Notes: generated by a model from the letters alone, not told the origin. A stretch of DNA of 43,732 nt from Candidatus Woesearchaeota archaeon (GCA_964502435.1 CAZCWL010000002.1:1-43732), one strand, 5' to 3'. Counted from the stretch's first letter, positions 12,514-37,340 are shown. Translations and numbers: made by a program.

Positions 12514-13458
12514 ATGGAAGTGTGGACTGAGAAATACAGGCCAAAAAAGTTAAGTGAGGTTATTGGCCAGAAGCATGTTACTTCAGTTTTAAAGAAATTT
12601 GTTAAAGAGGGAACTATACCTCATTTGCTTTTCTCTGGTCCTGCAGGGGTTGGTAAGACAACCTGTGCTTTAGCATTGGCGCATGAGTTATTTGGAAAGA
12701 ACTGGAAACAGAACTTTCTCGAGCTAAACGCATCTGATGATAGAGGCATAGACACGATACGAAGCAAGGTTAAGGATTTTGCCAGGACAAGGCCTATTGG
12801 TGCAGGGTTTAAGATTATCCTGTTAGATGAGGCTGATGCTTTAACCAGAGATGCTCAGCAAGCTTTGAGAAGGACCATGGAAAACTATTCTGAGACGTGT
12901 AGGTTTATTCTGGACTGCAACTACGTTTCAAAGATTATTGACCCTATTCAGTCCAGATGTGCTATACTGAGGTTTAAGCCATTAGAAAAGGAAGATGTGG
13001 TTGAGTATTTGCGTGAGATAGCAAAGAAGGAGAAGTTAAAGGTAGAAAAGAATGCCTTAGAAGCTATATACGATGTTACAAAAGGAGATATGCGTAGGGC
13101 TATTAATATCCTACAAGCATGCTCTGTTGATAAAGAAGTTACTATAAAGAGAGTTTACAGTTTGGCAGCCCTTGTTGATCCTAAGGAATTAGAGAAAGTT
13201 ATAAAGGACGCTCTTGGTTTTAAAATTGTTCAAGCTAGGGATCGGTTATTTGACTTGATGGTTAAACATGGTCTATCTGGTTTTGATGTGGTTAAGCAGA
13301 TGGTTCAAGTGATATGGAACATGGAGATAGATGATGTTAAAAAGGTGAGTATGATTGATGCTGTTGGAGAGTTTGAGTTTAGAATGGTTGAAGGCTCTGA
13401 TGAATATCTCCAGCTTGAAGCATTACTTGCAAGGTTTGCTAAGATAGGTGGGGAGTGA
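12514..13458 (+). CDS. rfcS: replication factor C small subunit
   Basis: 314 aa. WTEKYRP N-terminus, Walker A GPAGVGKTT, LDEADAL, SRC motif QSRCAILRF. No intein. Confidence 0.93.
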   Translation: MEVWTEKYRPKKLSEVIGQKHVTSVLKKFVKEGTIPHLLFSGPAGVGKTTCALALAHELFGKNWKQNFLELNASDDRGIDTIRSKVKDFARTRPIGAGFKIILLDEADALTRDAQQALRRTMENYSETCRFILDCNYVSKIIDPIQSRCAILRFKPLEKEDVVEYLREIAKKEKLKVEKNALEAIYDVTKGDMRRAINILQACSVDKEVTIKRVYSLAALVDPKELEKVIKDALGFKIVQARDRLFDLMVKHGLSGFDVVKQMVQVIWNMEIDDVKKVSMIDAVGEFEFRMVEGSDEYLQLEALLARFAKIGGE

Positions 13459-14591
13459 TGCTCCTTCTTAAGTACAGGCCAAGAACAGTGAAGGACATAG
13501 TTGGTCAACAGTCTGCTGTTAGTAAGTTAGTGTTTGCAGTGAGGCATCATAAGCCAGGTAAAGGAATATTCCTTTACGGCCCTACTGGTGTGGGGAAGAC
13601 TTCTAGTGTTTATGCCCTTGCTAATGACTTAGGTTATGAGGTTGTTAACATGGATGCTTCGGACTTGAGAAGTGCTGATCAGATAAATAAGATTATTGGA
13701 TCTTCGTCTAGACAGGCTAGTCTTTTTGGGAAAGGGAAGATATTACTCATAGACGAGTTGGAAGGCTTCTCTAGGAATGATAGAGGTGGAATAAGTGCTG
13801 TTGTTAAGGTTATTAAGCAGTCCAGATTTCCTGTTGTGGTTATAGCGAATGATGTGTGGAATAGGAAGTTTTATCCTCTTAAGCAAGTTTGCACTACTAT
13901 CGAGTTTAGGAGATTGAACAAATTAACAGTGAAGGCTTTTCTATCACGAGTTGTTAAACGTGAGAGGTTAAATGTTAGTGCTGAGCAGATAGAAAAGATT
14001 TCAGAGTCGTGCAATGGTGATTTAAGGGCTGCACTTCTTGATTTGGATTTAATTGCTAGAGGTTACAAGGAGGACATTATCAGATTAACAGAGCGTTCTG
14101 TCTTTGATGCATTGAAGAATGTCTTCCGTGCTGAGAATCCTTTTGATGCTAAAGTAGCGTTTGATCGCATATCTTTAGATTACTCTCAGATGTTATTGTG
14201 GGTTGGAGACAATGTTCCTATTGAGTATAGTGACATAGAAGAGGTTAGTACTGCAATGAACTTTGTCTCAAGGGCTGATGTGTTCTTAGGAAGGGTTGTG
14301 AGGCGTCAGTATTGGAGGTTTTTGGACTATGTTTATCTTTTAGGTCTGGTTGGGGTTGCTGCGTCTAGAGCTAGAGTGCATAAAGGTTTTAGAAGGTATG
14401 TAAGACCAGTTAAACTAGTTAAGCTTGGGTCTACTAGATTTAGTAGAGCTGCTGATAAGGAGATTGCTGAGAGGTTTGCTAAGTTCTGCCATACATCTGT
14501 TAGGCATGCTATGTCTTATGTTTATATGTATAATCATATAAAATCCAAGAGTAAGAAGAAGGCTGAGGAGCTACTAAGGAACATCTCCTGA
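13458..14591 (+). CDS. rfcL: replication factor C large subunit (short form)
   Basis: KYRP N-terminus, Walker A GPTGVGKTS, IDELEG box. The ATG at 13458 overlaps the rfcS TGA. About 377 aa, shorter than the archaeal RfcL proteins I remember. Confidence 0.85.
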   Translation: MLLLKYRPRTVKDIVGQQSAVSKLVFAVRHHKPGKGIFLYGPTGVGKTSSVYALANDLGYEVVNMDASDLRSADQINKIIGSSSRQASLFGKGKILLIDELEGFSRNDRGGISAVVKVIKQSRFPVVVIANDVWNRKFYPLKQVCTTIEFRRLNKLTVKAFLSRVVKRERLNVSAEQIEKISESCNGDLRAALLDLDLIARGYKEDIIRLTERSVFDALKNVFRAENPFDAKVAFDRISLDYSQMLLWVGDNVPIEYSDIEEVSTAMNFVSRADVFLGRVVRRQYWRFLDYVYLLGLVGVAASRARVHKGFRRYVRPVKLVKLGSTRFSRAADKEIAERFAKFCHTSVRHAMSYVYMYNHIKSKSKKKAEELLRNIS

Positions 14592-17500
14592 TACGTAGTA
14601 GTTTGCTGAGGCAAGTGTGAATTTTGCTTTTGGAGTTCTGTATGATATGTCTGGATCTATGGCTAAGTTCCAATCATCTCCTACGTAGAGCCATACTGGT
14701 CCAGAACCATTATAGTACATGTAATACTTTGATAGTTCGTATTCGTTGAGATTGTGCGTTCTTGATATCATTTCTGCTACATACTTTTCGTTTCTTTTTC
14801 CTGCATAGGTATAGTCATAGTCTGACCATAGCTGTGTTTTGTTTAGTGTCCATGTTTTTATTCGGATTGGGAAGATGCTTATTAATCCTTCTGATTCGTT
14901 TTCTGCTGTTCCATGGCCTTTCCAGTACGTTTCACTGTAACCTTCGCATTCTACTTTCCATAATGGCCCAAATTTTGTTACGTTGTTTGGCTCGATTTTT
15001 ATTACTGGAGAATAAGCGTAGACAGTTATGTTGTAATAAGCAGGGCCTGCTGTTGCGTTTATTACTGCTTTTAGTGTGTGGTTTTCTATCACTGTTACGT
15101 TATCAAACTGGTAGTACTGTGTTCCATTTGGTATCTCTGTTAACCACCACCATCCTATGTCGAATCCAAATATGCTTAGTAAAGAGTACCAGTTGTGGTT
15201 ACATCCTGTTGGGGAGAAGTAAGGCAAGTCATCTCCTTCACCAAGATACCATGTGTAGTATGAGTTTGTTATGTTTCTTGCTGTTGTGTTAACGTAGAGG
15301 TCTGTTTCAAGTGTTTTGTTTGTGGTGGTGTTAACATTGAAGTAAAGGTACAGAGTTGCTGTTTCTTTTCCAGCGATTGTGTCTATGAATAGTATCTCAG
15401 ACTTGTTCCCATATTGATTTAGCACTTCTACAGGTATGTTGTATCCTTTGTACAATAGGACAGTTGAGTTTGGATCTACATACGTATCTGTTGTGACATT
15501 TACTTCAACTGGCCACAAGTAAACAAACTCCGTGTTTCTTAGGATCAGTTTTGTTCTGTACTGTCTGGCAGGTATGTTTCCTAGGTACTTTTCTTCGTAG
15601 CTTAATTCTGCGGTTGGGTCGTCATTTGCTACTATAACATTGTACACTCCACTCATGTTTCTTAGTACTCCATTGTATAGTTCTCTTACCTCTTCATCTG
15701 TTAAGCTTCTATTGAAGATGTAAACTTCGTCTATCTCTCCGTCAAATGGACGCGAGGATGGGTTAGCGTCTCCGATGCGTAGAGCTGTTGTTGTATCCTG
15801 TATCCCATTCCACACTTTTGTATGTTCTGTAATCATTACTCCATTTTTGTAAATTTTTAACTTGTTGCCTGATGTGTCTATTACCACAGCGAAGTTGTTC
15901 CACTCACTCTGATTTAAACTACCGCTTGGTGCTCCTATCCCATGTTGAGTTGACCCATCATATGTTAGTGTAGAAATTGTGTCTATGTTTCCTTGCCCTT
16001 CATCTGCAAATCCTCCAACTTCTTCATCTCTCCATATTATTAATGGTTGACTGGTACCATGAGAGCCTTTTGTTATGATGTCTAAATCCTTAGTGAGGTT
16101 GTTTACATTTATCCAAAATACAAAAGATGCGTTTCCTAACTCAATGCTGTTTATGTCAGTTGTTTCTACATAGTTGTTGACTCCATTGAATCTTAGGGAT
16201 TTTCCAAATACTCCCTCTGTCCAAGTTGCACCGTATATTGTCCCGTCATTTTGGTTTGGGCTGCTGTCGTGTAAGGTATCTCCCTCTCCTTCATCAAAAC
16301 TCCATAGAGCAGCTATCCCTGTCACATTGAATAACTTAAACACTTGAGAACCGTTTGATTCTGAAGCGATGTTAGGATTGCCATTGGTGTATAGTTCTCT
16401 TACCTCTTCATCTGTTAGGCTTCTATTGAAGATGTAAACTTCGTCTATTGTGCCGTTAAATCTGTCATAGTTTCCATAGTAACTTTCACTGCTTATGTAC
16501 ACGTACCTATTTAATATTGGTGCTACATCGTATGATGAGGTTTCGTAGTAAAGTTCACCATTTACATAGATCTTGATGCTGTCATTGAACTTATGCACTA
16601 CTACAACATGAGTCCATCTGTTGTTAAGGTTTAAGCTAGACGGCCCTGTTATGTATTTTCTTCCACCTGTTATGTCTGTGTATTCGTACCTTAGTGAGGA
16701 AAAGTCGTTTAGGTACAACATTGCAACTCCACTGGATTGAGAACCAGAGGTTGGACCAATCCTTATCAAACCATTGTCATCCCATATGCTGTCTGGGTAG
16801 AACCACACAGACAGTGTTAACCCATTGGTTATGTTTACTGGACCAGACTTTGCGTATCCAGATGATCCGTTAAAGTGTATACCATACTTTATCTTTCCGT
16901 ATACAAATTCTCCTCCATAGTTTGTTGCATCATAGTTTCCTTCACTGTCCTCTGTGTTGTTATCAAATCTGTAGTGGATTATTGGATGCATTTCTGGTAA
17001 ACTTCCATGGTAGATGTAGAATGTGTTTTCTCCTGCTGATAAGTTTGCCTTGAACCACACAATACTTTCTCCAGAAGAGTTCCACTTCTCTATCCAGTAT
17101 GGCAATTCAGACTTTCCATAATAAAATCGTATGTCTGATCCATCTATCTTAGCGTGGTTGTAGTCAAAGTTTGTGTTGTTTAGTGTTAACTTTACTTGGT
17201 AATTATCCACGCTCTGAGCTGATCTAACATTTATTTTTGTGCGATAGTAAGTGTGGTAATAATACCAATCTTCTTGGTTGTTGAATTTTTCTACATTTAT
17301 CTTCTGGCCATAGTCGTATGTTTCTATTCTGCAGTTTTTTTCTTCAGCAAATAATTTTACTGCTTTTTCTCTTGCTTTTATGTAGTCTGCTAACCATTCT
17401 ATTCTGTATTCTTTTAGCAGATTGTGATCTGTGCCTGGTGTTATAGTGTAGTTTTTCTTTTCGTATATGCTATACCCCTCTTTGCTAAAATAGATGTAGT

Positions 17501-17915
17501 AATTGGTAGTACTGTCTGCTTTTATGTAGTCATTAAACTGAATTATCATTCTTCTGTTACTCATATCTTCCCATCCGTATGAGAAGGGTATCTCTTTTGT
17601 ACCTTTGTACAATCTTATGGAGTTTATATCTGTGTTATCAGGTAGGTCTATGGTGTCTGTGACAAAACAGTTGTAACAGTCTTCTCCTTCATTTTCTTTT
17701 ACAGTAAAGACTACTCTTGCTTCGTAGTCTGTTTGCCATGTAGGGTCATTATAAACACTTTCTAAGTACGATAACACAGACATCACGTTATCGTACTGGG
17801 ACTCCTCTAGATCCAGATTTATGGTTAGTTCAGAAGGTATGCTCAAATAACCGATTATGGCTATTACTACAGCTACGAGAATTATTCCAGACACGATGAA
17901 AAATTGGCCTTTCAT
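14574..17915 (-). CDS. giant prepilin-signal surface protein with DUF2341-like modules and two LamG (concanavalin A-like lectin) domains
   Basis: The track start at 17927 is GTG. An ATG at 17915 overlaps the upstream TGA and gives MKG|QFFIVSGIILVAVVIAIIGYL, a class III signal. DUF2341-like: YRTKINV...NYQVKLTL...DGSDIRFYYGKSELPYWIEKWN...IVWFKANLSAGENTFYIYHG. Two LamG_3-like domains each end in F(N/D)G(T/E)IDEVYIFNRSLTDEEVRELY. There are many N-x-S/T sequons. Confidence 0.8.
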   Translation of the reverse strand: MKGQFFIVSGIILVAVVIAIIGYLSIPSELTINLDLEESQYDNVMSVLSYLESVYNDPTWQTDYEARVVFTVKENEGEDCYNCFVTDTIDLPDNTDINSIRLYKGTKEIPFSYGWEDMSNRRMIIQFNDYIKADSTTNYYIYFSKEGYSIYEKKNYTITPGTDHNLLKEYRIEWLADYIKAREKAVKLFAEEKNCRIETYDYGQKINVEKFNNQEDWYYYHTYYRTKINVRSAQSVDNYQVKLTLNNTNFDYNHAKIDGSDIRFYYGKSELPYWIEKWNSSGESIVWFKANLSAGENTFYIYHGSLPEMHPIIHYRFDNNTEDSEGNYDATNYGGEFVYGKIKYGIHFNGSSGYAKSGPVNITNGLTLSVWFYPDSIWDDNGLIRIGPTSGSQSSGVAMLYLNDFSSLRYEYTDITGGRKYITGPSSLNLNNRWTHVVVVHKFNDSIKIYVNGELYYETSSYDVAPILNRYVYISSESYYGNYDRFNGTIDEVYIFNRSLTDEEVRELYTNGNPNIASESNGSQVFKLFNVTGIAALWSFDEGEGDTLHDSSPNQNDGTIYGATWTEGVFGKSLRFNGVNNYVETTDINSIELGNASFVFWINVNNLTKDLDIITKGSHGTSQPLIIWRDEEVGGFADEGQGNIDTISTLTYDGSTQHGIGAPSGSLNQSEWNNFAVVIDTSGNKLKIYKNGVMITEHTKVWNGIQDTTTALRIGDANPSSRPFDGEIDEVYIFNRSLTDEEVRELYNGVLRNMSGVYNVIVANDDPTAELSYEEKYLGNIPARQYRTKLILRNTEFVYLWPVEVNVTTDTYVDPNSTVLLYKGYNIPVEVLNQYGNKSEILFIDTIAGKETATLYLYFNVNTTTNKTLETDLYVNTTARNITNSYYTWYLGEGDDLPYFSPTGCNHNWYSLLSIFGFDIGWWWLTEIPNGTQYYQFDNVTVIENHTLKAVINATAGPAYYNITVYAYSPVIKIEPNNVTKFGPLWKVECEGYSETYWKGHGTAENESEGLISIFPIRIKTWTLNKTQLWSDYDYTYAGKRNEKYVAEMISRTHNLNEYELSKYYMYYNGSGPVWLYVGDDWNLAIDPDISYRTPKAKFTLASANYYVSGDVP
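15675..15734. repeat. 60-nt intragenic direct repeat, copy 1 (C-terminal LamG domain)
   Basis: gtatagttctcttacctcttcatctgttaagcttctattgaagatgtaaacttcgtctat matches 16389-16448 at 59 of 60 positions, and the one difference is synonymous (TTA/CTA Leu). The copies are 714 nt apart, which keeps the reading frame. Confidence 0.9.
16389..16448. repeat. 60-nt intragenic direct repeat, copy 2 (N-terminal LamG domain)
   Basis: See copy 1. The flanking sequence on both sides diverges immediately. Confidence 0.9.
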
Positions 17916-19783
17916 ATTAATCTCCACGTGTACAAGTTTATCTCACACATTCCTTCATCTAGTGGAATAACTTTTGTAGCTAGTTTAGCATTTGGGGGAA
18001 TTATTCTTGTCATGCTTGGGGATCTGCCCTCCTTCTCTTTATCTTCTGCTGGTGTCACGATCTCACCAGACATTAACGAACTATTGTAGCTGCTTTTGTA
18101 CAATGTTCCAATGCTGTACACTAGCACAGCATTGTTTGTTCCACCAGGCACGTAGAATATAACATCTGCTCTCGTTGTTTTCTCAGGGTTTATCTTCTGG
18201 ATTGTGACACTGTCTACGTCTCTGTGGATGTTCACATAGTTCGCTGTGTGGTTTGTATCATTTGATGCGTAGTAAATATCTATTGTGTATCCTTTATTAG
18301 CTATCATTGTTGTTTTTATTGTTAAGTCTACGTCTGTTTTGTTTCCATTCGTAGAATAACTTTCTAGGTCAACTGGTACTTTATCCCCGTCAACAAAAAC
18401 AGTTATGGAGTTTATATCCACTGTTTTTCCTTCTTCTACCTCTAATGTTGCAGACAATCCAATACCACTGTCTATTATGTCATAACTTGATCTTGCAGTC
18501 ATTCTTACTCTGTACCAGTCAAATATGACATTTCTACTTGCCATACCTTTGTCAGTTTTTACTAGTATTGAGTTTTTGTCTACATTGGATGGGAAGTTGT
18601 AAGCTAGCATGAACGTTTCTGTTCTATTTGTTATATTCTCTTGACTTCCCACACTCGCACTTATCCCTGCTTTACACAACTCCATTTGGTCCACATAAAT
18701 GTGATCTCCACCATCCCCTAGATCTGTTGCGAATGTTATGGTGTCTAACGTGCTGTAACCAAGAGAGGATAGATTGTACGTGTAGAAGTACCATCCATCT
18801 TCAATTGATAGTACATTCTGTGCACTCTGGTATGTGTCACAATCACTACTGTTAGCTTTTGCTATTACTCTTTTGTCGAGAGATACACCGTTTGTCACGT
18901 ATGCTACAATGCATGTGTCAGCTTTATCATCCTTTTTTAATTTCAGTTTAAGTATTGGATACTCTTCTATACTAACATTTAGTATGCTTGCGTTATGGTT
19001 TATACACACTTCTTGCGTTCCGTTTTTTGTGCCTGCTTTTAGGTGTTCTGGCTGGGCATCGTCTGTTTGCATCGAGTAACCCATACCTTTAACCACAAGG
19101 GATGGAGAGTTATCGCAGTCATCAAAGTAATCCCATTTGTTTCCATTGGTCCCGAAGATCTGCACGCATGAAGAGTGTGCAATCTCGAAATCATACTGTG
19201 GTTCTTCTGCTTCTGGATTATTATAGTACAGATAATACTCCTTTTCTTCATACGGGCTTAAGCTTGTGAAGAAGCTTATGTATGCACTGTTACATCCGTT
19301 GTTGTATGTGGTATTGAAAACATGTATTGGTACTAGTTCTCCCTTTCTGACTAGTCTTAGCTCTTTTGTACAGTTAGTTGTGTTTTCTACTTCGACTTTA
19401 ACAGTAACTACTTCATTGTCTCGTTCGTATCCTTGGTCTTCCCTCACGATAATTTTTTTCCTCTTTAGCCAATCTCCATACCATGCTTCTTCGTCAATTA
19501 TTATTGGTACTTGGTATGTCATGGTAACTTTTGATCCCACATACTCTTCAGATAGTTCACTAGACATCATACTCTCAAGTGCTGCTAGGTCATAGTTGTT
19601 TGCAGCACTAGAGATAAAGTTTTCACTTACACTATCTAAGTATGACTTTCCAATGTCCATTTCTATCTTTGGTTTGTATTGTGAGTAGACATTTGTGTTC
19701 AGATAGACGAATATCCAACTTATTGCTACCACGAGCAGTACAACTTCTGTTACTCTTACAAACGCTTTCAAATCCACCACCAA
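17912..19783 (-). CDS. large prepilin-signal surface protein with DUF2341-like beta modules
   Basis: The track start is TTG at 19783. A TTG at 19771 overlaps the upstream TGA (TTGA) and would give MKA|FVRVTEVVLLVVAISWIFVYL. Modules such as KKIIVREDQGYERDNEVVTVKVEVEN...GELVPIHVFN...KEYYLYYNNPEAE resemble the DUF2341 pattern. Rich in N-x-S/T sequons. Confidence 0.65.
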   Translation of the reverse strand: MVVDLKAFVRVTEVVLLVVAISWIFVYLNTNVYSQYKPKIEMDIGKSYLDSVSENFISSAANNYDLAALESMMSSELSEEYVGSKVTMTYQVPIIIDEEAWYGDWLKRKKIIVREDQGYERDNEVVTVKVEVENTTNCTKELRLVRKGELVPIHVFNTTYNNGCNSAYISFFTSLSPYEEKEYYLYYNNPEAEEPQYDFEIAHSSCVQIFGTNGNKWDYFDDCDNSPSLVVKGMGYSMQTDDAQPEHLKAGTKNGTQEVCINHNASILNVSIEEYPILKLKLKKDDKADTCIVAYVTNGVSLDKRVIAKANSSDCDTYQSAQNVLSIEDGWYFYTYNLSSLGYSTLDTITFATDLGDGGDHIYVDQMELCKAGISASVGSQENITNRTETFMLAYNFPSNVDKNSILVKTDKGMASRNVIFDWYRVRMTARSSYDIIDSGIGLSATLEVEEGKTVDINSITVFVDGDKVPVDLESYSTNGNKTDVDLTIKTTMIANKGYTIDIYYASNDTNHTANYVNIHRDVDSVTIQKINPEKTTRADVIFYVPGGTNNAVLVYSIGTLYKSSYNSSLMSGEIVTPAEDKEKEGRSPSMTRIIPPNAKLATKVIPLDEGMCEINLYTWRLI

Positions 19784-20529
19784 GTTTCTATCTTCAGCAA
19801 TAGTAAGTACTCACTGCTGTTGAATACTTCTTTTTTGTACACGTCTCTTGTGAAGGAGGTGGTTGAAGTACCATCTTCACCATATGAGTTCGTTAATGGA
19901 ATGCAACCAACTTTAAAGTAATTGTACCCTGTAGCATTTGTTCTCATGCAGTTTGCACCTTTACATACGTTTAGTATGCTAACGTAGAAATCATGGGGTG
20001 AGTATGTGATTATCTTTGCGCTTGTGTTTGGGTAGATTGTTATGACCTTGTTTCCGTAACTGTCTGTGCTAATGTTTGTTATCAATGTGTAATTTCCTGT
20101 TGTTCTGTTGATGAAGGAGTACGCTACTCCTACCTCTGAAGGGATCTTTATCTTCACTTGCTCCTCATTTGTTGTGATATTTATTACATTGTTCTCTCTC
20201 CAGATATGGCCTTTGCATACGTCGTAGTCTGGCATGTGTAAACCCACTACTTTGTACGTTACTTTTACTGCCTCTACACCTTGCTCTTTGATGTAAGGTA
20301 TCTTATCAAGATCAGTGTTTGCAATCTTTCTGAACAGTATGCTATTTCTGATGTATGAGACTGTTGAGCTCACTGTGCTTGTGAATGGATCAAACATTCC
20401 AATGAGCTTTATGACAATAATAGTTACCACAATAGCAAACAGAGCATACCCTACCATGAAGTCTATGTCTATTACCTGGCCTCTAGACGATAGTGATGCT
20501 GAACTTTGATTTCGCCGAATACGCATCAT
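19768..20529 (-). CDS. prepilin-signal (pilin-like) protein
   Basis: 253 aa. Basic N-terminus ...SSRG|QVIDIDFMVGYALFAIVVTIIVIKLIG. A perfect SD (GGAGGT) lies 6 nt upstream of the ATG, inside the 3' end of the preceding gene. Confidence 0.6.
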   Translation of the reverse strand: MMRIRRNQSSASLSSRGQVIDIDFMVGYALFAIVVTIIVIKLIGMFDPFTSTVSSTVSYIRNSILFRKIANTDLDKIPYIKEQGVEAVKVTYKVVGLHMPDYDVCKGHIWRENNVINITTNEEQVKIKIPSEVGVAYSFINRTTGNYTLITNISTDSYGNKVITIYPNTSAKIITYSPHDFYVSILNVCKGANCMRTNATGYNYFKVGCIPLTNSYGEDGTSTTSFTRDVYKKEVFNSSEYLLLLKIETWWWI

Positions 20530-21583
20530 AGCTTACCTCCACATAGCATGTGTTGTCTCCTTTTGTTTTTGGAGCGTTGACATTGACCCTAAAGAACCCG
20601 TCTGCGTCTGTTTTTCCTGTTCCTTTGTTATTTTCACATATAACTGTTACGTCTGCACCTCCTAGTGGTTTACTCTCGATTGTAGCTTTACCTTGTACCT
20701 CTATTAACTGTCCTGGTACGTACCTTGTGTAGGTTAGAGGGGTTAAATCTATGTATATCTTCTCAGGGAATATGTAAACAGCGAATACCACCAGTGCTAC
20801 TACTACAAGTATTAGGCTTGTTCTAAGGCCAGCTGTCACTTTTCCATCCGTTACTACTCCAGATAGAACTCCTGTTGCTATTGCTTGGATCACTGTAGCA
20901 GCAAAGAATAAGACTTTGTAGAACATTAAGTCCACTGGTTGCGTTGCTCCTCCTGTTAAAGCTTGTGTGTTTACACTTGTGATTGGTATCATGATGTTAT
21001 ACAGTGCAATTATTATTGCTATGAATACAAAGAATATGATATATATGACAAGTGTCTGCTCTTTCATTGCTGATCTTCTCTCTCTTTCCATATTCAGGAT
21101 AGATCTAGCTGCTTCAGCTATGTAATCAAGTGTTTCGTCTAGTTTACCTCCAGATCTATACGCGTCAGTAACTATAGCTATCATTCGAGTTAGGTGAACA
21201 GAATCAGAGTACTTATTTTTTAAGTCATTCATCACCTCTATAAACGGAACACCCCAGGATATTTTTATAGCCATTTTCTTTATTTCTTCACTTAAAGGCC
21301 CGTAATTTGCTTTGCTTGCTAGCTTTATTGCTCCTGTTAGTGGCATTCCTGCTCTTATTGACTCAGACAGGTCATTTAGGAAGTTTGGAAACGCTTTTTC
21401 GATTTCATTCAGTAACCTTAATCTCATGTATTTGATAATGGAGTATGGTCCAATAGAAATTATTATAGCTATCACAGCACCGATTGCCAAGTCTGTTATG
21501 TTATTGTAGGAAATTAGAAAGTATGCGTACACAATTATGCCTATTATAATACTACTTATCAGTACAAGTGTTTGTTTTCTCAT
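20483..21583 (-). CDS. T2SSF-domain pilus platform protein (TadC/PilC-like half) with C-terminal Ig-like beta-sandwich domain
   Basis: 366 aa. One T2SSF-type cytoplasmic domain (FPNFLNDLSESIRAGMPLTGAIK...AYRSGGKLDETLDYIA) is flanked by TM helices. The last ~93 aa (GGADVTVICENNKGTGKTDADGFFRVNV...) resemble a carboxypeptidase-regulatory-like fold. Confidence 0.78.
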   Translation of the reverse strand: MRKQTLVLISSIIIGIIVYAYFLISYNNITDLAIGAVIAIIISIGPYSIIKYMRLRLLNEIEKAFPNFLNDLSESIRAGMPLTGAIKLASKANYGPLSEEIKKMAIKISWGVPFIEVMNDLKNKYSDSVHLTRMIAIVTDAYRSGGKLDETLDYIAEAARSILNMERERRSAMKEQTLVIYIIFFVFIAIIIALYNIMIPITSVNTQALTGGATQPVDLMFYKVLFFAATVIQAIATGVLSGVVTDGKVTAGLRTSLILVVVALVVFAVYIFPEKIYIDLTPLTYTRYVPGQLIEVQGKATIESKPLGGADVTVICENNKGTGKTDADGFFRVNVNAPKTKGDNTCYVEVSYDAYSAKSKFSITIV

Positions 21584-22444
21584 TTAACCACCTGTTGGCG
21601 ACGCTGCTTTTATCATCACCACAAAAGCAGCTGTTAACACAGGTAAGCCAACAAATATGAGGAATGTTTGTAATTGTGTTACCCACGCTCCCCCCATGCC
21701 AAAGATTCCCATGATTGATGACATGACTAGAGCAAATATCGTGCCAACTATGACTACTGTTATGTAAATCTCAAGGTAGACACTTAATGAGTCTGTGAAT
21801 GATTTTATCCTATTTTTGTAGTTTTCCAGGGCAGCATTGGCTTTCTCTGTTATGTACTTTCCAAGATCCCCACCCGTTGTTATGGTTGATCGCATACCAA
21901 CTAGTAATTCTCTGAACTCATCTGAAGGGATTTTTGCTGCTTCTACTTCTATTGCTTCAACTGTTTCTAAATTCAGTATGTGTATGTCATCAACTATGCG
22001 TTGACATATCTTTGCAATCTCTTTGAAATCCTTAAACTTTGCAATGGTTTCGAATATTCTGTAAGGTGGCAATCCTATGCTTGCCATAGCTGCCATGTAG
22101 ATAGCTACATAGTACAGTGAGTTTTCAATGTTCTTTTTAATGGCACTTGCGTTCTGTTTTGGCCAGAGGTACAGCACAAAGAATGCTATACCTGCTACCA
22201 CTACTGAGACAAGTAGTGCAATTGCTATCCCAAGCATGCCAATTAGTGAGTAGAACAGTATGGACATCACGATAGAGAACATTAGGAATACTAATCCAGA
22301 GATAAGTATCATCATTGCAACGTACTCTTCTAAGCTGTATGGTAAGTGTGACTTTTTTAGAGGGTCTTCTATCTCCTTGAAGTACTTTACTTTATCTTTT
22401 ATTACGTTCCTTAGCAGCCTGTAAGAGTACTCTCCAAAGTTCAT
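21584..22444 (-). CDS. T2SSF-domain pilus platform protein (TadB/PilC-like half)
   Basis: 286 aa. N-terminal and C-terminal TM helices surround one T2SSF-like domain (...ELLVGMRSTITTGGDLGKYITEKA...). Its ATG overlaps the ATPase TGA. Confidence 0.78.
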   Translation of the reverse strand: MNFGEYSYRLLRNVIKDKVKYFKEIEDPLKKSHLPYSLEEYVAMMILISGLVFLMFSIVMSILFYSLIGMLGIAIALLVSVVVAGIAFFVLYLWPKQNASAIKKNIENSLYYVAIYMAAMASIGLPPYRIFETIAKFKDFKEIAKICQRIVDDIHILNLETVEAIEVEAAKIPSDEFRELLVGMRSTITTGGDLGKYITEKANAALENYKNRIKSFTDSLSVYLEIYITVVIVGTIFALVMSSIMGIFGMGGAWVTQLQTFLIFVGLPVLTAAFVVMIKAASPTGG

Positions 22445-24534
22445 GCTACACCACGTTTCATGTAGAAGTAAGGATTTGTGTAGAATGATTGGATGTTGTA
22501 GGCTACCTGATCAAACTCCACTATCTTGTGTGTTGCCATCCAGTTGAGAAAATTAGCTCTGTTCATTAGATCATGCCTCAACTCTTCTATGTTATAGCCC
22601 ATTGATTTTGCTAGTTTGTCAAGCATAACGCTCTTTTGGGCTATGAATCTGTCGTTTTTAGCGTCCCACACGTAGGATGTGTTTGTTATTATGTTATCTG
22701 TTTTGTAGTCGTACGCAACTATCTCTATGATCTCTCTGATTCTTCTTATAGTCTTACCTGCTCTTTTAACACGTGTTAGGAATACCACTATGTCAAGATT
22801 TTCCAGCATAGCTTTAGCTAGCTCTATTGGAGGGCTTGTTAGTCTGTTCACAAGGGCTGCAAAATTATCAGCATGCAGTGTTCCCATTGCAGGATGTCCT
22901 GTTGCTATGCCTTGGAACATAACATAAGCTTCTTTACCTCTGATCTCACCAACTATTAGGTAATCTGGTCTTTGCCTCATTGCTGCTTTTAGAAGATCGA
23001 ACATGCTTACTTCTCCTTGTGCACTCTTTCCGAATCCAGGTCTTGCCACCTCTGGAATCCAGTTCACATGTGGTAGTCTAAGTTCTGCTGTGTCTTCTAT
23101 TGATATGATCTTTGAGTTTGGAGGTATGAACATGGATAGAACATTTAGCATTGTTGTTTTACCTGTTGCTGTAGTACCTGCTACAAGTATTGATGAGCCA
23201 TTCTCTATTGCTAGCCATAAGTAAGCAAGTATCTTTGCGTCTGCTGTGCCAAAGTACATTATGTGTATAGGTGTTATTGGTTTTGTAGTGAATTTTCTTA
23301 TTGTGAAGTTTGATCCGTGTCTAGCAATGTCTGTTCCGTACGTTGCTTGGATTCTTGAACCATCAGGCAGTGCAGCGTCAAGTAACGGTTGTGAGACACT
23401 CAAAGCTTTTCCAGCTTTTTGTGCTAACCTGAGTACAAAGTTGTCTAGTTCCTCTCTGCTTCTGAACACGATGTTTGTCTCGATCTGTCCGTACAAAGGA
23501 TTTCTATGGTAAACAAATACAGGTATGTTTACACCATCGCATGATATATCTTCGATGTTTACATCGTTCATTAACGGCTCGATCGGACCTAACCCTACAA
23601 AGTCTCTGTAGATGTAGTAGTATATCTTTAATTTTTGTGTTGGACTTAGTTTAACTTTTATGAGCTTTATTATCTCATTTACTTTCTTTGTGAGGTAGGC
23701 AAAGGCTTTGTTTTTGTTTCTTATCCTGTCAAATGGTATATCCACTTTTTCTTTCAACATCTTCTTTATCTCTTCTAGTATCTCTTTTTCTTGTTTACTT
23801 AGAACAGGCTCAATTACATCGTACTTAAGGGATCTTCGCCTTGGGTCCCAGTAGATGTGACCCATTGCTACAGGGATCCTTCTCTTCCTTATTGGAAGTT
23901 CTACAAGCGGGAATTGCTCGTTTGTGCGTTGTAGTTCTTTTATTACTCTGAGTTTTGGAGTTTCTATAGCCTCTACTCCAAGCTCAACTGCTTTGTATTG
24001 CGGTTTTATTCTACTTTTTGCCTCGTACGTTGATACGTATCCAGGCGGTTGAGCAGGTGGTGTTGTGGCAGCTTCTACTGCTTTTGCTGCTAGATTAACA
24101 AAAAGATCTGGAGGAAGCTTAACAGATGGGATTTCAACGGATGGGGACTTTAATTCTATTGCAGGAGTTTTCATTTCTACTGTTGGTTGGACAAATTCTA
24201 CTTTCTCTGCTTTTATTGGGTGGGAGACTGCCTTTTTTTCTATCTCTTTTATCTTCTCTTCTATCATCCTTTGTAGCTCTTTCCACTTTTCTTCATCTTC
24301 TTTTGATAGCTTTGGCTTGGTAGGTTTTTCTACTTTGGGCGGTGCTTGCTCTGCTTTTTGAGACGGTTTTGGTGCTTGTGGCTTGGTTTCAATTGCTTCT
24401 TCTTGTTTTGGTTTAGTTACTTGTTCTTCAAGCTTTGTTGTTTTTTGTTCTTTAGCTGGTTTGGACGTAGTTTCCTCTAGCTTTGGTTTTACCTTGTTTA
24501 TTCTTTTTACAGCCGTTGTGAGGTTTAGCATCAT
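22441..24534 (-). CDS. type II/IV secretion family ATPase (FlaI/PilB/TadA-like) with long low-complexity N-terminal extension
   Basis: 697 aa. Walker A AGTTATGKTT, Asp box IISIEDTAEL, Walker B RPDYLIVGEIRG, His box GHPAMGTLHADN. The first ~200 aa are rich in K, P, E, Q and T. Confidence 0.9.
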   Translation of the reverse strand: MMLNLTTAVKRINKVKPKLEETTSKPAKEQKTTKLEEQVTKPKQEEAIETKPQAPKPSQKAEQAPPKVEKPTKPKLSKEDEEKWKELQRMIEEKIKEIEKKAVSHPIKAEKVEFVQPTVEMKTPAIELKSPSVEIPSVKLPPDLFVNLAAKAVEAATTPPAQPPGYVSTYEAKSRIKPQYKAVELGVEAIETPKLRVIKELQRTNEQFPLVELPIRKRRIPVAMGHIYWDPRRRSLKYDVIEPVLSKQEKEILEEIKKMLKEKVDIPFDRIRNKNKAFAYLTKKVNEIIKLIKVKLSPTQKLKIYYYIYRDFVGLGPIEPLMNDVNIEDISCDGVNIPVFVYHRNPLYGQIETNIVFRSREELDNFVLRLAQKAGKALSVSQPLLDAALPDGSRIQATYGTDIARHGSNFTIRKFTTKPITPIHIMYFGTADAKILAYLWLAIENGSSILVAGTTATGKTTMLNVLSMFIPPNSKIISIEDTAELRLPHVNWIPEVARPGFGKSAQGEVSMFDLLKAAMRQRPDYLIVGEIRGKEAYVMFQGIATGHPAMGTLHADNFAALVNRLTSPPIELAKAMLENLDIVVFLTRVKRAGKTIRRIREIIEIVAYDYKTDNIITNTSYVWDAKNDRFIAQKSVMLDKLAKSMGYNIEELRHDLMNRANFLNWMATHKIVEFDQVAYNIQSFYTNPYFYMKRGVA

Positions 24535-25475
24535 TATCTTGTTTCTATTTCTATTTTTATATGGTTTATAACAGAGTCAGATGTTTCTTCTCTACCTAAT
24601 GGAATGGCTTTTATCCTGTACTTTCCATCGGATACACTACATCTGTCTTTACATGTGATGTTTATGTAATAATCTTTTCCTGTTATATCATCTCTTAGGT
24701 GAGTGTGATATATCCTTATGAAATTATCACTTGCTTCTTGGGTTATTATAGCCTTTGCCACTATTATACTTTGATCATCTATACCTAGTATACCTTTGTC
24801 CCAGACGTAGTCTCCTCCTATATACACTAATCCATCTGTTGAGTATTCAACAACGTATTCTTTGTTATCTTTGTTTATCTTGTCATAAAGGCAAGCACAG
24901 TCAGATTGACATTGGATTGGAGATGACTCGTTTAAACATACGTAGATGTATCCTGGATCAACGTCTTGGGTGCAGTAAGATGTATTTGTGATGTTAAATA
25001 CCCACACTGTGTACGTGTGTCCGTACATTGTTAGTGTGGCGTTTTGTGTGTTGTAAGTGTCTGGGCAGCCTTCCCCTAAGTCAAGGTTTGGTACATCAAT
25101 TGTGTCGTTTGAGAATGTTTCTCTTTTAAATGGTAGTTTGTAGCCTTCTAGTGGGACCCATTCCACAGCAGATATGACAGGAACTGCTGTCATTGCTCTT
25201 ATTTCTACTATTCCTTGCCCCCCTACAACGTCATCATTTTTTATAGACAGAGTTGTGTCTTTTAAGCTTATGTCAACTGTTTTTACTGTGCCTGACTCTG
25301 CTGCTGATAAGATTGTTTGGTCGATTGATTTTGCCTGTTCTATCAAGGTGTTTATTTTGCTTCTGTCAAAGCTTTTTTGTATTAAAGGTCGTCCCCATAG
25401 GTATGCAGCGAATACTATTATCAAGATTATGCCAACTAACAGTATTGTAGTTAGTATCTCCTGCTGGCCTTTCAT
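24534..25475 (-). CDS. prepilin-signal (pilin-like) protein with Cys-rich C-terminal domain
   Basis: 313 aa. MKG|QQEILTTILLVGIILIIVFAAYLW. It has its own candidate TATA box upstream and overlaps the ATPase start by 1 nt. Confidence 0.65.
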   Translation of the reverse strand: MKGQQEILTTILLVGIILIIVFAAYLWGRPLIQKSFDRSKINTLIEQAKSIDQTILSAAESGTVKTVDISLKDTTLSIKNDDVVGGQGIVEIRAMTAVPVISAVEWVPLEGYKLPFKRETFSNDTIDVPNLDLGEGCPDTYNTQNATLTMYGHTYTVWVFNITNTSYCTQDVDPGYIYVCLNESSPIQCQSDCACLYDKINKDNKEYVVEYSTDGLVYIGGDYVWDKGILGIDDQSIIVAKAIITQEASDNFIRIYHTHLRDDITGKDYYINITCKDRCSVSDGKYRIKAIPLGREETSDSVINHIKIEIETR

Positions 25476-25496
25476 AACTATAAGTAGAAATTCTGT

Positions 25497-25510
25497 GTAT
25501 AAATAATTTT
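25497..25510 (-). promoter_or_regulatory. candidate BRE/TATA for the assembly-gene part of the pilus operon
   Basis: The minus strand reads AAAATTATTTATAC, with the TATA-like part centred about 26 nt upstream of the ATG at 25475. This implies a leaderless or near-leaderless transcript. Confidence 0.35.
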
Positions 25511-25512
25511 GG

Positions 25513-25529
25513 AAACAAAAAATAAAATC
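25513..25529 (-). terminator. oligo-T terminator after pilin gene 25530-25970
   Basis: The minus strand reads GATTTTATTTTTTGTTT immediately after the TAA. Oligo-T tracts are the usual archaeal terminator signal. Confidence 0.45.
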
Positions 25530-25970
25530 TTAACTTGCTGTGCAGGTTGCGGACTGCTCTCCTCCACCCGGAGCATTTACTCTTATTGAGTACGTGTGAC
25601 TTGACTCCATACCACTTACCGTGAAGTATATCAGTTTTATGCCTCCTGTTTCGATGGTTCCAACTGCTGAAGCGTTTGTTGCTGTAGCGAGTGTTGTTCC
25701 GTTTGTGTACATCGCTGTTAGGACCCATGTCCCAGCACTTATTGCATCACCCTGATTCCTAACATAAAAGCTTATATTATTCGAACTTGAATCGCAGACG
25801 AGACCTGTTATTTGAAACTGTATGTTTGCTCCAGTACTTGTTATCCTTCCTGAAACTTGCTGCTGAATCCTACCTTGTGTGGAGGTAAACCACAAGTAAG
25901 CTGTTCCTGCAGCTGCTACTGTCATAAGTAGCAACAGAACAATTGCAATTATTGGCGTTATCCCTTTCAT
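25530..25970 (-). CDS. archaeal type IV pilin (Pilin_N type), paralog 1
   Basis: 146 aa. MKG|ITPIIAIVLLLLMTVAAAGTAYLW is a textbook class III signal plus hydrophobic helix. Two Cys residues. SD AGGTGA lies upstream. Confidence 0.85.
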   Translation of the reverse strand: MKGITPIIAIVLLLLMTVAAAGTAYLWFTSTQGRIQQQVSGRITSTGANIQFQITGLVCDSSSNNISFYVRNQGDAISAGTWVLTAMYTNGTTLATATNASAVGTIETGGIKLIYFTVSGMESSHTYSIRVNAPGGGEQSATCTAS

Positions 25971-25983
25971 GATGATTCACCTA
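25816..25983. repeat. 168-bp block identical between the two pilin genes (5' UTR/RBS plus codons 1-52), copy 1
   Basis: Identical by eye to 26366-26533, with no synonymous differences. Confidence 0.9.
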
Positions 25984-26004
25984 TTTTATTCTTAGATTCA
26001 GAGC

Positions 26005-26017
26005 TATATAAATTTTT
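26005..26017 (-). promoter_or_regulatory. BRE/TATA promoter of pilin paralog 1
   Basis: The minus strand reads AAAAATTTATATA, followed 30-35 nt later by the ATG, with AGGTGA in between. Confidence 0.5.
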
Positions 26018-26029
26018 GGATAAGGAATT

Positions 26030-26040
26030 AAAAAACAAAA
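26030..26040 (-). terminator. oligo-T terminator after pilin gene 26047-26520
   Basis: The minus strand reads TTTTGTTTTTT a few nt after the TAA. Confidence 0.45.
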
Positions 26041-26046
26041 GAAGGC

Positions 26047-26520
26047 TTAGCTTGCTGTGCAGGTTGCGGACTGCTCTCCTCCACCCGGAGCATTTAGTCT
26101 TATGGTGTAGCTTTTAGTAGATTCTATCAGTGAGCCATTTATTTGTACTGTTGTTAGGTCTGATATATCTCCTGTTACTAGTGTTCCATCACCTTCACTA
26201 ACGTTGAAAGTTCCTACATAAGTTGTGCTGTCAGTGGCAGAGTCGATTACTGTTATGATCCAGCTCGTGTTCGTTATACTATCTCCTTGGTTTCTTATGT
26301 AGAATGATATGTTGTCATTTGCGCTAGCATCTGCTGTACCAGTACATTGTAAACCTACTATCTGGAACTGTATGTTTGCTCCAGTACTTGTTATCCTTCC
26401 TGAAACTTGCTGCTGAATCCTACCTTGTGTGGAGGTAAACCACAAGTAAGCTGTTCCTGCAGCTGCTACTGTCATAAGTAGCAACAGAACAATTGCAATT
26501 ATTGGCGTTATCCCTTTCAT
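26047..26520 (-). CDS. archaeal type IV pilin (Pilin_N type), paralog 2
   Basis: 157 aa. The N-terminal 54 aa and the C-terminal NAPGGGEQSATCTAS are identical to paralog 1. The central ~85 aa are divergent. Confidence 0.85.
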   Translation of the reverse strand: MKGITPIIAIVLLLLMTVAAAGTAYLWFTSTQGRIQQQVSGRITSTGANIQFQIVGLQCTGTADASANDNISFYIRNQGDSITNTSWIITVIDSATDSTTYVGTFNVSEGDGTLVTGDISDLTTVQINGSLIESTKSYTIRLNAPGGGEQSATCTAS

Positions 26521-26533
26521 GATGATTCACCTA
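26366..26533. repeat. 168-bp block identical between the two pilin genes, copy 2
   Basis: See 25816-25983. A second shared block of 57 nt with 2 mismatches covers the 3' ends (25530-25586 and 26047-26103). Confidence 0.9.
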
Positions 26534-26554
26534 AATTAATATTAAAAACAGTAG

Positions 26555-26569
26555 TATATAAAGTTTTTT
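26555..26569 (-). promoter_or_regulatory. BRE/TATA promoter of pilin paralog 2
   Basis: The minus strand reads AAAAAACTTTATATA, then 34 nt including AGGTGA before the ATG at 26520. Confidence 0.5.
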
Positions 26570-26960
26570 AGAGGTTTAGAAACGACTCTTTGTTTTGGTG
26601 AAGAGCATTCCTCACTAGGTTTGTAGTGTCTGATGGTGGAACATAGTTATACTTGCTTGCTCTGATCTCATTAACTATAGCATTTACACCATCTTTTATC
26701 GCTTTGACCACGTCTTCATTAGGATTATCCACTTCACTAGCTAACTCAAGCAATTTTATCATCCGATCAGCTCTCTCTGTAAAATTCTCTAACTTCACAG
26801 ACAGCTCTGTTAATTTTGAGACAAGATTAATTTGCATTGCAGAAAGCTTTGCCATCTGTTCTGACAGCTCATCTGTTTTCTTCTTTATTTTTCCTATCTC
26901 CTCATCAATTTCACTTATCTCTCTCTTAACACTTAGCTTCTCTACATCTCTCTTTACCAT
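26568..26960 (-). CDS. hypothetical coiled-coil protein
   Basis: 130 aa. Heptad-like charged and hydrophobic pattern over residues ~1-75. It lies 22 nt downstream of flpA on the same strand. I recognise no family. Confidence 0.45.
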   Translation of the reverse strand: MVKRDVEKLSVKREISEIDEEIGKIKKKTDELSEQMAKLSAMQINLVSKLTELSVKLENFTERADRMIKLLELASEVDNPNEDVVKAIKDGVNAIVNEIRASKYNYVPPSDTTNLVRNALHQNKESFLNL

Positions 26961-26982: not shown

Positions 26983-27591
26983 TTATATGTTTTTCACTAA
27001 GAAGGCCATGTGGTCCTTTTCGTAAGGTTCTAGTCTTTTCTGGTCTTCAATCTTGAAAATCAACTCTTTCGCCACATGCTTAAACACATCCCTTGGATCA
27101 GCTTTTACGTCTATGCTCCTTGCCTTAACCATTAGTAACCCTTCAGGAGCATTGAAATACTTCATATTTCTAACAAATATCTCTACCTGGTTTGGCTGTG
27201 CTATGTCTTGGTAAACAAAGTCTGGTTTGTCTATGTCCTTGTACAGTTCTGGCTTAGAAGCGTCTGCCAGGATTGGCATCAAATTTTTCCTTGTCTTGGC
27301 TAAAAGTATTAAGTCTCTCATTGGTCTGTAAGCAAATTCTACTGCATAGACCTTCTTAACAATGTCTGATACGTGCGATACTGTTGTACCTGAGGCAGCT
27401 CCAAGGTACAAAACTGTCATATTCTTGTTAAGATTAACTTTCATACCTTTTAGTATGGCAGCAGCAAGTTTACTTCGATAAGGGTTCCATTCTCTATACT
27501 CTACTCCATTTATTCTAACGAGTTTCTCACCGTAAACTCTTTGTCCTGGAACAAGGTTCGGAGTGTAAAGTCTATTTCCTTTTCTTATCAT
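26983..27591 (-). CDS. flpA: fibrillarin-like rRNA/tRNA 2'-O-methyltransferase
   Basis: 202 aa. YREWNPYRSKLAAAIL, SAM motif VLYLGAASGTTVSHVSDI, DIAQPNQ. Overlaps nop5 by 20 nt. Confidence 0.93.
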   Translation of the reverse strand: MIRKGNRLYTPNLVPGQRVYGEKLVRINGVEYREWNPYRSKLAAAILKGMKVNLNKNMTVLYLGAASGTTVSHVSDIVKKVYAVEFAYRPMRDLILLAKTRKNLMPILADASKPELYKDIDKPDFVYQDIAQPNQVEIFVRNMKYFNAPEGLLMVKARSIDVKADPRDVFKHVAKELIFKIEDQKRLEPYEKDHMAFLVKNI

Positions 27592-37248: not shown

Positions 37249-37340
37249 CCCGCGGTAGCTCAACTGGTAGAGCGCCCGGCTGTAGGTTGATTGACCGAGC
37301 GGTCACCGGGAGGTTGCTGGTTCGAGTCCGGCCCGCGGGA
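37249..37340 (+). tRNA. tRNA-Tyr (anticodon GTA) with a 19-nt intron at the canonical 37/38 position
   Basis: Acceptor CCCGCGG/CCGCGGG (the C1-G72 pair typical of archaeal tRNA-Tyr), discriminator A, D arm GCTC-AACTGGTA-GAGC, anticodon stem CCCGG/CCGGG, T arm GCTGG-TTCGAGT-CCGGC. There are 26 nt between the anticodon-stem halves: loop CTGTAG..A plus the intron 37286-37304. A bulge-helix-bulge structure can be drawn: CTGT pairs with GCGG, flanked by the 3-nt bulges AG|G and TC|A. Confidence 0.85.

Follow-up and report, generated by a model that had tools for sequence, protein, structure and literature searches.

Organization of the Locus

The type IV pilus-like locus discussed here lies on the minus strand of a 43,732-nucleotide stretch of DNA from a Candidatus Woesearchaeota archaeon (GCA_964502435.1, CAZCWL010000002.1:1-43732), and it is this whole stretch that we refer to below as the window. 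Translation of positions 14574-26520 yields nine tightly packed open reading frames (ORFs), all of them where a preliminary description, made from the sequence alone, had placed them, and they encode, in order, two major pilins, a 313-amino-acid (aa) protein (p313), a FlaI/GspE-type ATPase, two halves of a platform protein, and three proteins of 253, 619, and 1113 aa (p253, p619, and p1113; Table 1). The two pilin genes and the p313 gene are separated by gaps of 76 and 54 nucleotides (nt), and downstream of p313 the overlaps between successive genes are 1, 4, 0, 47, 4, and 4 nt. Most of the operon starts are preceded by ribosome-binding sites of the GGTG/GGAGG type. The two starts that the preliminary description had named for the last two genes, the one at 19771 only conditionally, agree with independent gene calls: the ATG at 17915 (1113 aa) is the start called on three metagenome contigs that carry an identical large protein, and the TTG at 19771 (619 aa) is the start of the preceding gene in the independent call for one of those contigs.

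In six of the operon proteins, a [KR][GA] motif near the start leads into a hydrophobic stretch, a feature that had been read correctly from the sequence and that gives them N-termini of the class III (prepilin) type. These six proteins contain 1.9-3.2 N-glycosylation sequons per 100 aa versus 0-0.64 in cytoplasmic proteins of the same window, which agrees with an extracellular location for the set.

Each of the major pilin genes has, separately, an exact AAAA[AC]TTTATATA box with a T-rich tail, and the same box motif with one mismatch precedes three other genes of the window. A scan for sigma-70 promoters was discarded, as it is not meaningful in an archaeon. Directly upstream of pilin gene 1, just beyond the range first described, lies a gene for a coiled-coil protein (26568-26960), which is conserved and with which the locus probably comprises ten genes; its positional homologues stand directly upstream of the pilin gene or genes in four other loci (L003, L004, L084, and L087, 17-27% identity), and we infer a regulatory or scaffold role for its product. 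The copy in the window does not have the N-terminal EYELVPINPIKKLEK-type motif that the other copies carry.

Table 1. Positions of the features at the locus and the evidence for each; a slash marks the predicted cleavage site
Feature	Position	Strand	Evidence and remarks
130-aa cytoplasmic coiled-coil protein, probable tenth gene	26568..26960	-	No signal or transmembrane segment; positional homologues
BRE (B recognition element)/TATA-like box AAAACTTTATATA	26555..26567	-	Exact pattern match; ~35 nt upstream of pilin gene 1
Major pilin 1, 157 aa, MKG/ITPIIAIVLLLLMTVAAAG	26047..26520	-	TIGR02537 6.5e-8, above cut-off; GGTGA ribosome-binding site
BRE/TATA-like box AAAAATTTATATA	26005..26017	-	Pattern match; upstream of pilin gene 2
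Major pilin 2, 146 aa, mosaic paralogue of pilin 1	25530..25970	-	TIGR02537 1.1e-7; 67% identity to pilin 1
Minor pilin, 313 aa, DUF7289-related, MKG/QQEILTTILLVGIIL	24534..25475	-	AlphaFold2 (AF2) model, hhalign, synteny
Assembly ATPase, 697 aa, ~200-aa Lys/Glu/Pro-rich N-terminal extension	22441..24534	-	T2SSE 9.5e-34
Platform N-terminal half, 286 aa, one T2SSF domain	21584..22444	-	T2SSF 1.3e-15; aligns to ArlJ 9-248 of 555
Platform C-terminal half, 366 aa, one T2SSF domain, ~75-aa C-terminal beta-sandwich-like tail	20483..21583	-	T2SSF 8.7e-22; aligns to ArlJ 193-461 of 465
Putative minor pilin, 253 aa, class III-type, ...SSRG/QVIDIDFMVGYALF	19768..20529	-	DUF7287 N-terminus 1.6e-5; 3.2 sequons/100 aa
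Putative minor pilin, 619 aa, class III-type, MKA/FVRVTEVV	17912..19771	-	Independent gene call; DUF2341-like module
Putative modular minor pilin/adhesin, 1113 aa, class III-type, MKG/QFFIVSGIIL	14574..17915	-	Laminin_G_3, DUF2341; 33 sequons
DUF2341 module of p1113, residues ~214-305	17001..17276	-	Pfam 1.4e-8 (module scan), 8.8e-9 (whole protein)
Tandem LamG/ConA-like domains of p1113, residues ~330-510 and 530-750	15666..16928	-	AF2 pLDDT (predicted local distance difference test) 73-91 in these blocks only

Assembly ATPase and Split Platform

The core of the locus consists of the assembly ATPase and of a platform that is encoded in two pieces. In the translated ATPase the Walker A (AGTTATGKTT), Asp (SIEDTAEL), Walker B (DYLIVGEIRG), and His (GTLHADN) boxes can all be read as the preliminary description had quoted them. 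Its best NCBIfam match is the FlaI equivalog (436.6 bits, under the cut-off of 550), and its best-scoring relative of known structure is Archaeoglobus fulgidus GspE (afGspE; 2OAP, 421.7 bits), followed by FlaI (322 bits) and CpaF (157 bits); a match to PilB3_C is faint (E 0.034, 14.7 bits, under the cut-off of 27). The two adjacent T2SSF proteins align to the N- and C-terminal halves of ArlJ/UpsF, with scores under the equivalog cut-off, and because each of these genes matches one half, the platform protein is, judged by its alignments, split into two genes.

The tail of the C-terminal platform half (20483-20710) gives weak CarboxypepD_reg, Big_6, bMG3, and Ig matches over residues 301-363, and a similar tail can be seen by eye in the L003 and L087 homologues; a beta-sandwich-like tail of this kind would be an unusual extra domain for a PilC/FlaJ-type protein.

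Major Pilins and the 313-aa Minor Pilin

Both major pilins match TIGR02537, the family of archaellin and type IV pilin N-termini, with 31.9 and 31.2 bits (cut-off 20), and both have a C-terminal beta region beyond this N-terminus; pilin 1 also gives a weak match to the archaeal filament subunit 8fk7, which was deposited as 'Flagellin'. Over 25530-26567 the DNA of the two genes is 100% identical from -13 to approximately +155 nt and again over the last ~47 nt, and the centre has strongly diverged, a mosaic pattern which suggests gene conversion at the ends combined with diversification of an exposed middle. A tandem pilin pair with near-identical N-termini is also found in L003. Each of the two dedicated pilin genes is served by a consensus TATA box and a ribosome-binding site of its own, which suggests that the products are abundant shaft subunits.

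The 313-aa protein is a genuine pilin paralogue, and among p313, p253, p619, and p1113 it is the sole protein with demonstrated pilin homology. Compared with the major-pilin family by hhalign, it aligns over the first ~90 positions with 95.2% probability (E 2.8e-8), and its AF2 model, computed from a 25-sequence alignment (pLDDT 92.5, predicted TM-score 0.81), is lollipop-shaped, with a 60-residue helix (residues 2-61) followed by an all-beta domain. An exhaustive HMMER search recovered 297 relatives, 22 of them full-length with E < 1e-30, and syntenic orthologues are present in L001-L004, L084, and L087. Of 70 p313 relatives, 36 match Pfam DUF7289 and two carry LamG. A Foldseek comparison of the model with the Protein Data Bank (PDB) gave no significant match (best E 8e-3, TM < 0.15), so that the beta domain is not tied to a solved minor pilin, and PDB profile searches with the p1117, p623, and p313 family alignments returned nothing beyond a marginal match to 8fk7.

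The Downstream Class III-Type Proteins and Their Modules

The last three genes encode proteins with a common start, in which a G or A separates a basic leader from about 20 hydrophobic residues, and this trio varies in size and in domain content between lineages. A [KR][GAS]/[QFA] motif with a hydrophobic N-terminus is retained in nearly all orthologues of the three families, at ~20-25% identity overall: typical N-termini are RG/QVIDIDF, KA/AVIDIDI, and RG/QIVDVDL in the p253 family, where the motif is kept in orthologues of 154-261 aa, KA/FVRVTEV, KA/FIKTIEA, and RG/FVKMVEV in the p619 family, and KG/QFFIV, RG/QFFIA, and RA/QFFVA in the p1113 family. The match of p253 to DUF7287 reaches 26 bits, just under the cut-off of 27, and a literature search on DUF7287/7288/7289 found nothing. 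In the p253 and p619 families (20430-20480 and 19720-19771; L001-L006 and L084) an acidic residue stands ~4-6 positions past the predicted cleavage site (QITIEY, QIDLEF, FVRVTE, FIKTIE), which recalls the Glu5 of bacterial pilins and is absent from the major pilins.

The lectin-type fold of the locus resides in p1113, in which Pfam recognizes Laminin_G_3 over two stretches (1.6e-43). The models of the two LamG domains match, at a Foldseek E of ~1e-12, the clostridial neurotoxin Hc, neurexin LNS, and trans-sialidase lectin domains, all of them receptor-binding jelly-rolls of the ConA-like type. The tandem is a lineage-specific insertion: it is absent from the four aligned full-length orthologues in L001-L004, and hence is not a defining feature of the system. 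No lectin-fold domain was detected by Pfam in p619 or p253. The preliminary picture of giant lectin-fold accessory pilins is therefore limited to one protein, because LamG occurs only in p1113 and came there by insertion; similarly, the combination of a class III signal with DUF2341 and LamG that had been ascribed to the largest proteins applies to p1113, whereas p619 has a DUF2341-like module and no detectable LamG.

The DUF2341-like modules, which had been noticed by eye, form a second repertoire. Pfam, run on sub-segments of p619 and p1113, recognizes one DUF2341 module only, in p1113, and no family on p619. A local profile based on residues 55-150, where the p1113 family has its first conserved module, matches residues 95-185 of p619 at 27.5 bits, residues 785-863 of p1113 at 23.5 bits, and the Pfam DUF2341 site at 10.2 bits, and because these scores exceed the best shuffled control (5.2 bits), the modules are real repeats. 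The sister modules of p1113 thus lie at residues 56-149 and 785-863, which adds two to the one that passes Pfam, and p619 has at least one. An orthologue alignment places a ~290-aa lineage-specific insertion in p619. Within that insertion, residues ~195-385 (19200-18620) form a Cys-rich region of ~190 aa with no detectable family. A word-indexed homologue search returned almost only self-matches for p313 and p619, and LamG-region matches only for p1113.

Binding modules also appear on other proteins elsewhere: LamG is found on a p313-like scaffold in another contig, and other giant LamG proteins of DPANN archaea (P0003 and P0010) have class III or Pilin_N N-termini. The families look like conserved minor-pilin scaffolds onto which binding modules have been grafted lineage by lineage.

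Conservation and Genomic Setting

Relatives of the ATPase with 41-56% identity are present in 80 GTDB representative genomes, and those with a lineage name are nearly all DPANN (Aenigmatarchaeota, Nanoarchaeota/Nanobdellota, Woesearchaeota, Pacearchaeota, and Undinarchaeota); an exact-sequence look-up of the ATPase matched no contig. The synteny across DPANN that the preliminary description had proposed to examine is found in full, from p313 through the ATPase and the two platform genes to p253, p619, and p1113, in four loci: L001, the unclassified archaeon metagenome-assembled genome (MAG) Bin_444; L002, a Woesearchaeota genome; L003, from Nanoarchaeia; and L004, Ca. Haiyanarchaeum thermophilum (Nanobdellota). 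A fifth, L087, has the order Nop5, fibrillarin, thermosome, coiled-coil, pilin, p313-like, ATPase, two platform genes, three class III genes, and RFC, which mirrors the neighbourhood in the window, where the flanks (12514-14591 and 26983-28243) place the operon between fibrillarin/Nop5 (with thermosome in some genomes) and convergent genes for the large and small RFC subunits. The operon adjoins RFC genes in L003 as well as in L087, and lies downstream of fibrillarin in L003, L004, and L087. Such a conserved chromosomal position across distant Nanobdellota-type genomes implies long-term vertical inheritance.

The length of the downstream proteins varies greatly on this constant background. Orthologues of p619 measure 329-354 aa in L001-L004 and 130-148 aa in L084 and L087; those of p1113 measure 940-1337 aa in L001-L004 and 451 aa in L087, with the N-terminal ~150 aa and the C-terminal domain conserved; the whole trio of L087 is 154, 148, and 451 aa; and a compact version in Aenigmatarchaeota keeps the operon backbone, its class III proteins being 136, 163, and 130 aa long.

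The window was surveyed by scanning 38 ORFs with Pfam and by checking five Pfam-negative ones for membrane segments. It is rich in information-processing genes (TopoVI, MCM, TBP, RFC, PCNA, fibrillarin/Nop5, and GINS). A single 412-aa ORF (37652-38890) matches both DNA_primase_S and DNA_primase_lrg and is thus a fused PriS-PriL primase, a form known from Nanoarchaeum. Because of this fusion, and because the closest relatives of the ATPase are found in Nanobdellota, Woesearchaeota, and Aenigmatarchaeota MAGs, the gene content supports a DPANN-like (Nanobdellota-like) genome, as had been supposed.

Relation to Known Type IV Filament Systems

The window contains a secretion ATPase, a T2SSF platform, and class III pilins, the components by which type IV filaments are recognized, and the locus is a real archaeal type IV pilus cluster. 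It also falls within catalogued diversity, and both such clusters and the idea that they serve host attachment are already in the literature, which weakens the novelty that the preliminary description had seen in it. According to Makarova et al. (2016, PMC4858521), clade 1 loci combine an ATPase with two TadC genes, contain several minor pilins, and encode two large class III proteins with DUF2341, for which these authors proposed a role as tip adhesins; they also noted two tadC genes in many clade 2 loci and assigned some nanoarchaeal ATPases to clades 2 and 4F. For DPANN, Sivabalasarma and Albers (2026, bioRxiv 10.64898/2026.04.22.720090) reported System 1 as well as a variant of subsystem 4A in which two platform genes are followed by genes for accessory proteins or adhesins. 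Golyshina et al. (2017, PMC5498576) found LamG proteins to be expanded in DPANN, some of them linked to type IV pilus loci, and proposed a role in host interaction. In the Jingweiarchaeales paper, pilin arCOGs are only listed.

Two of these groups invite closer comparison. With the Epd-type systems (clade 1/System 1), which are reported in some DPANN, the locus shares an ATPase with a two-gene platform, several class III minor pilin-like proteins, and large class III DUF2341 proteins (p1113 with DUF2341 and p619 with related modules); however, the Epd major pilin is a headless protein of ~70 aa (arCOG06620), whereas those of the window reach 146 and 157 aa and possess a globular beta domain, and neither an EppA peptidase nor a MinD/FleN gene belongs to the present locus. 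The high similarity of the ATPase sequence to afGspE and FlaI likewise would argue against the deep-branching clade 1. The locus resembles clade 2/System 2, the euryarchaeal systems of the H. volcanii PilB3/PilB4 type, in the N-terminal extension of the ATPase and its faint PilB3_C match, in PilA-like globular pilins, in large adhesin-like proteins, and in a ~300-aa all-beta minor pilin of the FlaFind type beside the ATPase; p313 fits the description of arCOG02911 (250-550 aa, FlaFind-positive, all-beta), a likeness by description only. Subsystem 4A, known from some DPANN, similarly has accessory genes downstream of two platform genes. The p253/p619/p1113 trio, by contrast, has no named counterpart except for the weak N-terminal DUF7287/DUF7289 matches.

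The analogue nearest to the locus that has an experimental basis is Streptococcus sanguinis (PMC9934059), where two near-identical major pilins are found, where the minor-pilin complex modelled at the tip includes the modular pilins PilB and PilC, and where PilC carries a ConA-like lectin module that binds host glycans. The two systems have in common a class III signal with grafted adhesive modules, including a ConA-like lectin, and the pair of near-identical major pilins; the grafting that characterizes a modular pilin is seen here in the two LamG domains inserted in p1113 relative to its orthologues. They differ in that the S. sanguinis proteins are bacterial and have no sequence homology to those of the window, which are much larger (619 and 1113 aa) and have repeated DUF2341-like modules. 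In 'Ca. Mancarchaeum acidiphilum' Mia14 and other DPANN, LamG jelly-roll proteins also stand beside type IV pilus loci (PMC5498576), but they are not described as class III or minor-pilin fusions, and Mia14 belongs to the Micrarchaeota and has another locus structure. The PilY1-type adhesins share only DUF2341 (Makarova et al., 2016, PMC4858521), and no Pfam match to the C-terminal beta-propeller of PilY1/PilC was obtained on p619 or p1113.

A Probable Pilus with Proposed Adhesive Tip Modules and Its Alternatives

We consider it probable that the locus encodes a non-archaellar DPANN type IV pilus with a priming or tip complex of minor pilins on which lectin-type adhesin modules are carried. 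A prepilin peptidase encoded elsewhere would remove the short basic leaders; the hexameric FlaI/GspE-type ATPase would dock on the two half-size T2SSF proteins, acting as a heterodimeric platform, and would extract pilins from the membrane and polymerize them; and the two highly expressed mosaic major pilins would form the shaft. The 313-, 253-, 619-, and 1113-aa proteins would then constitute a minor-pilin set that primes assembly and ends at the filament tip, where DUF2341-like beta-sandwiches and the LamG pair of this lineage may be displayed as adhesins, most plausibly for glycans on a host cell or surface. Cleavage of p253, p619, and p1113, their incorporation at the tip, and binding of glycans or of a host are what we infer, the tip location by analogy.

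Several observations weigh against this interpretation. No filament has been observed. No A24 prepilin peptidase was found among the screened ORFs of the 43.7-kb window, as had already been remarked. The p253, p619, and p1113 families gave no significant hhalign match to the pilin family. The preliminary expectation of an N-terminal pilin helix held for p313; the AF2 model of p1113, built from a LamG-dominated alignment, has a mean pLDDT of 50, falls below 60 in the N-terminal region, and is reliable only in the two LamG domains. The pilin status of the trio is accordingly putative, as it rests on the conservation of the motif and on context, and a plain signal-anchor topology is the alternative. 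At position +2, p313 has Q and p1113 has F, both presumably atypical for the FlaFind motif, and not every LamG domain binds carbohydrate.

The same observations feed two readings in which the large proteins are not part of a long filament. One is a bindosome-like structure or pseudopilus, in which a short envelope-spanning stub anchors the large class III proteins as surface receptors; the Sulfolobus bindosome is an established case of class III signals on surface proteins outside filaments, and such signals are proposed to be widespread (10.64898/2026.04.22.720090), the large proteins have no detectable pilin globular homology, and pilin 2 is weakly similar to BasA (E 0.014). Membership of the bindosome itself was rejected, as the BasE (223.9 bits, cut-off 1000) and BasF (36.5 bits, cut-off 1300) equivalog scores fall far under their cut-offs and no substrate-binding-protein family was found on the nine locus proteins or on the other scanned ORFs; the provision of two dedicated pilin genes with their own TATA boxes and ribosome-binding sites also speaks against a stub, which we regard as unlikely. 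In the other, the products of the large downstream genes would be envelope or S-layer-like proteins with a signal anchor, which locally remodel or 'prime' the wall for passage of the pilus or simply share its operon. Sivabalasarma and Albers suggest that adhesin- or S-layer-like proteins of type IV filament loci may prime the cell wall, and both the hhalign result and the want of a confident AF2 pilin moiety in p1113 would agree with this, but [KR][GAS] directly precedes the hydrophobic segment in all three families, including versions of 130-163 aa that are too small for wall proteins, and the four-member accessory set parallels known minor-pilin sets (PMC9934059); this makes a purely envelope-bound role rather improbable.

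The remaining alternatives concern the function and the identity of the filament. A pilus used mainly for the uptake of DNA or nutrients, in the manner of competence pili, would be compatible with the tip-adhesin pilus that we favour: a transformation-defect screen in Methanococcus maripaludis recovered transposon insertions in epd genes, including a DUF2341-domain gene (PMC10133366), and DPANN papers speculate on pilus-mediated DNA import. As its main purpose, however, uptake seems quite improbable, since neither the operon nor the scanned window ORFs include a DNA-binding or ComEC-like component, since there is no retraction ATPase, and since the variable modules are lectin-type receptor-binding folds. 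A degenerate archaellum is effectively refuted, in keeping with the preliminary assignment to a pilus-like system: although FlaI is the best NCBIfam match of the ATPase and the platform halves match ArlJ, both scores stay under their equivalog cut-offs, the ATPase is nearer to afGspE than to FlaI, the pilins, at 146 and 157 aa, are closer to the UpsA/B type, and no FlaH, FlaF/G, FlaC/D/E, or FlaX was found among the 38 scanned ORFs.

DPANN archaea need physical contact with a host, and the molecules that mediate this contact are largely unknown. Against this background, the locus is a concrete and conserved candidate for a host-contact apparatus, contained in one operon that keeps its chromosomal position across Nanobdellota-type genomes, and the growth of its last genes from ~150 to >1300 aa via inserted binding modules is evidence of modular evolution. 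The idea of pilus-linked LamG and DUF2341 adhesins has already been published, and the value of the present case is thus that of a well-dissected example and not of a new principle. More tentatively, and as a possibility that we would not press, the minor-pilin scaffolds might serve as a platform into which lineages plug receptor-binding modules (LamG, DUF2341 repeats, and others), acquiring some and losing others; in that case the tip would be the organ by which an episymbiont recognizes its host, with the modules setting its host range as in the swapping of phage tail fibres, and the mosaic major pilins would add variation along the shaft.

Further Features of the Window

Three other genes of the window deserve mention. 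The Nop5/Nop56 homologue upstream of the operon (27572-28243) is only 223 aa long and matches the C-terminal Nop domain alone, the usual N-terminal domain being apparently missing. The tRNA-Pro called at 37249-37341 measures 93 nt, longer than a standard tRNA, and thus probably contains an intron; its reported anticodon, AGG, is an unusual one and perhaps a calling error. Finally, the ORF at 35573-36736 encodes a 387-aa protein without a Pfam family, in which an N-terminal signal-like segment is followed by N-x-T-rich repeats that resemble beta-helix repeats (20 sequons). The protein also has a charged linker and, at its C-terminus, a hydrophobic stretch that could anchor it in the membrane, and it probably represents one more glycosylated protein of the cell surface.

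The identical copies of the 1113-aa protein are on contigs L081, L082, and L083, which come from three metagenome samples (ENA ERZ27227322, JGI 3300013103, and JGI 3300010332), and the p619 cluster holds 11 near-identical member sequences. From the presence of the 1113-aa protein in three separate samples, the population would appear to be widespread or repeatedly sampled.

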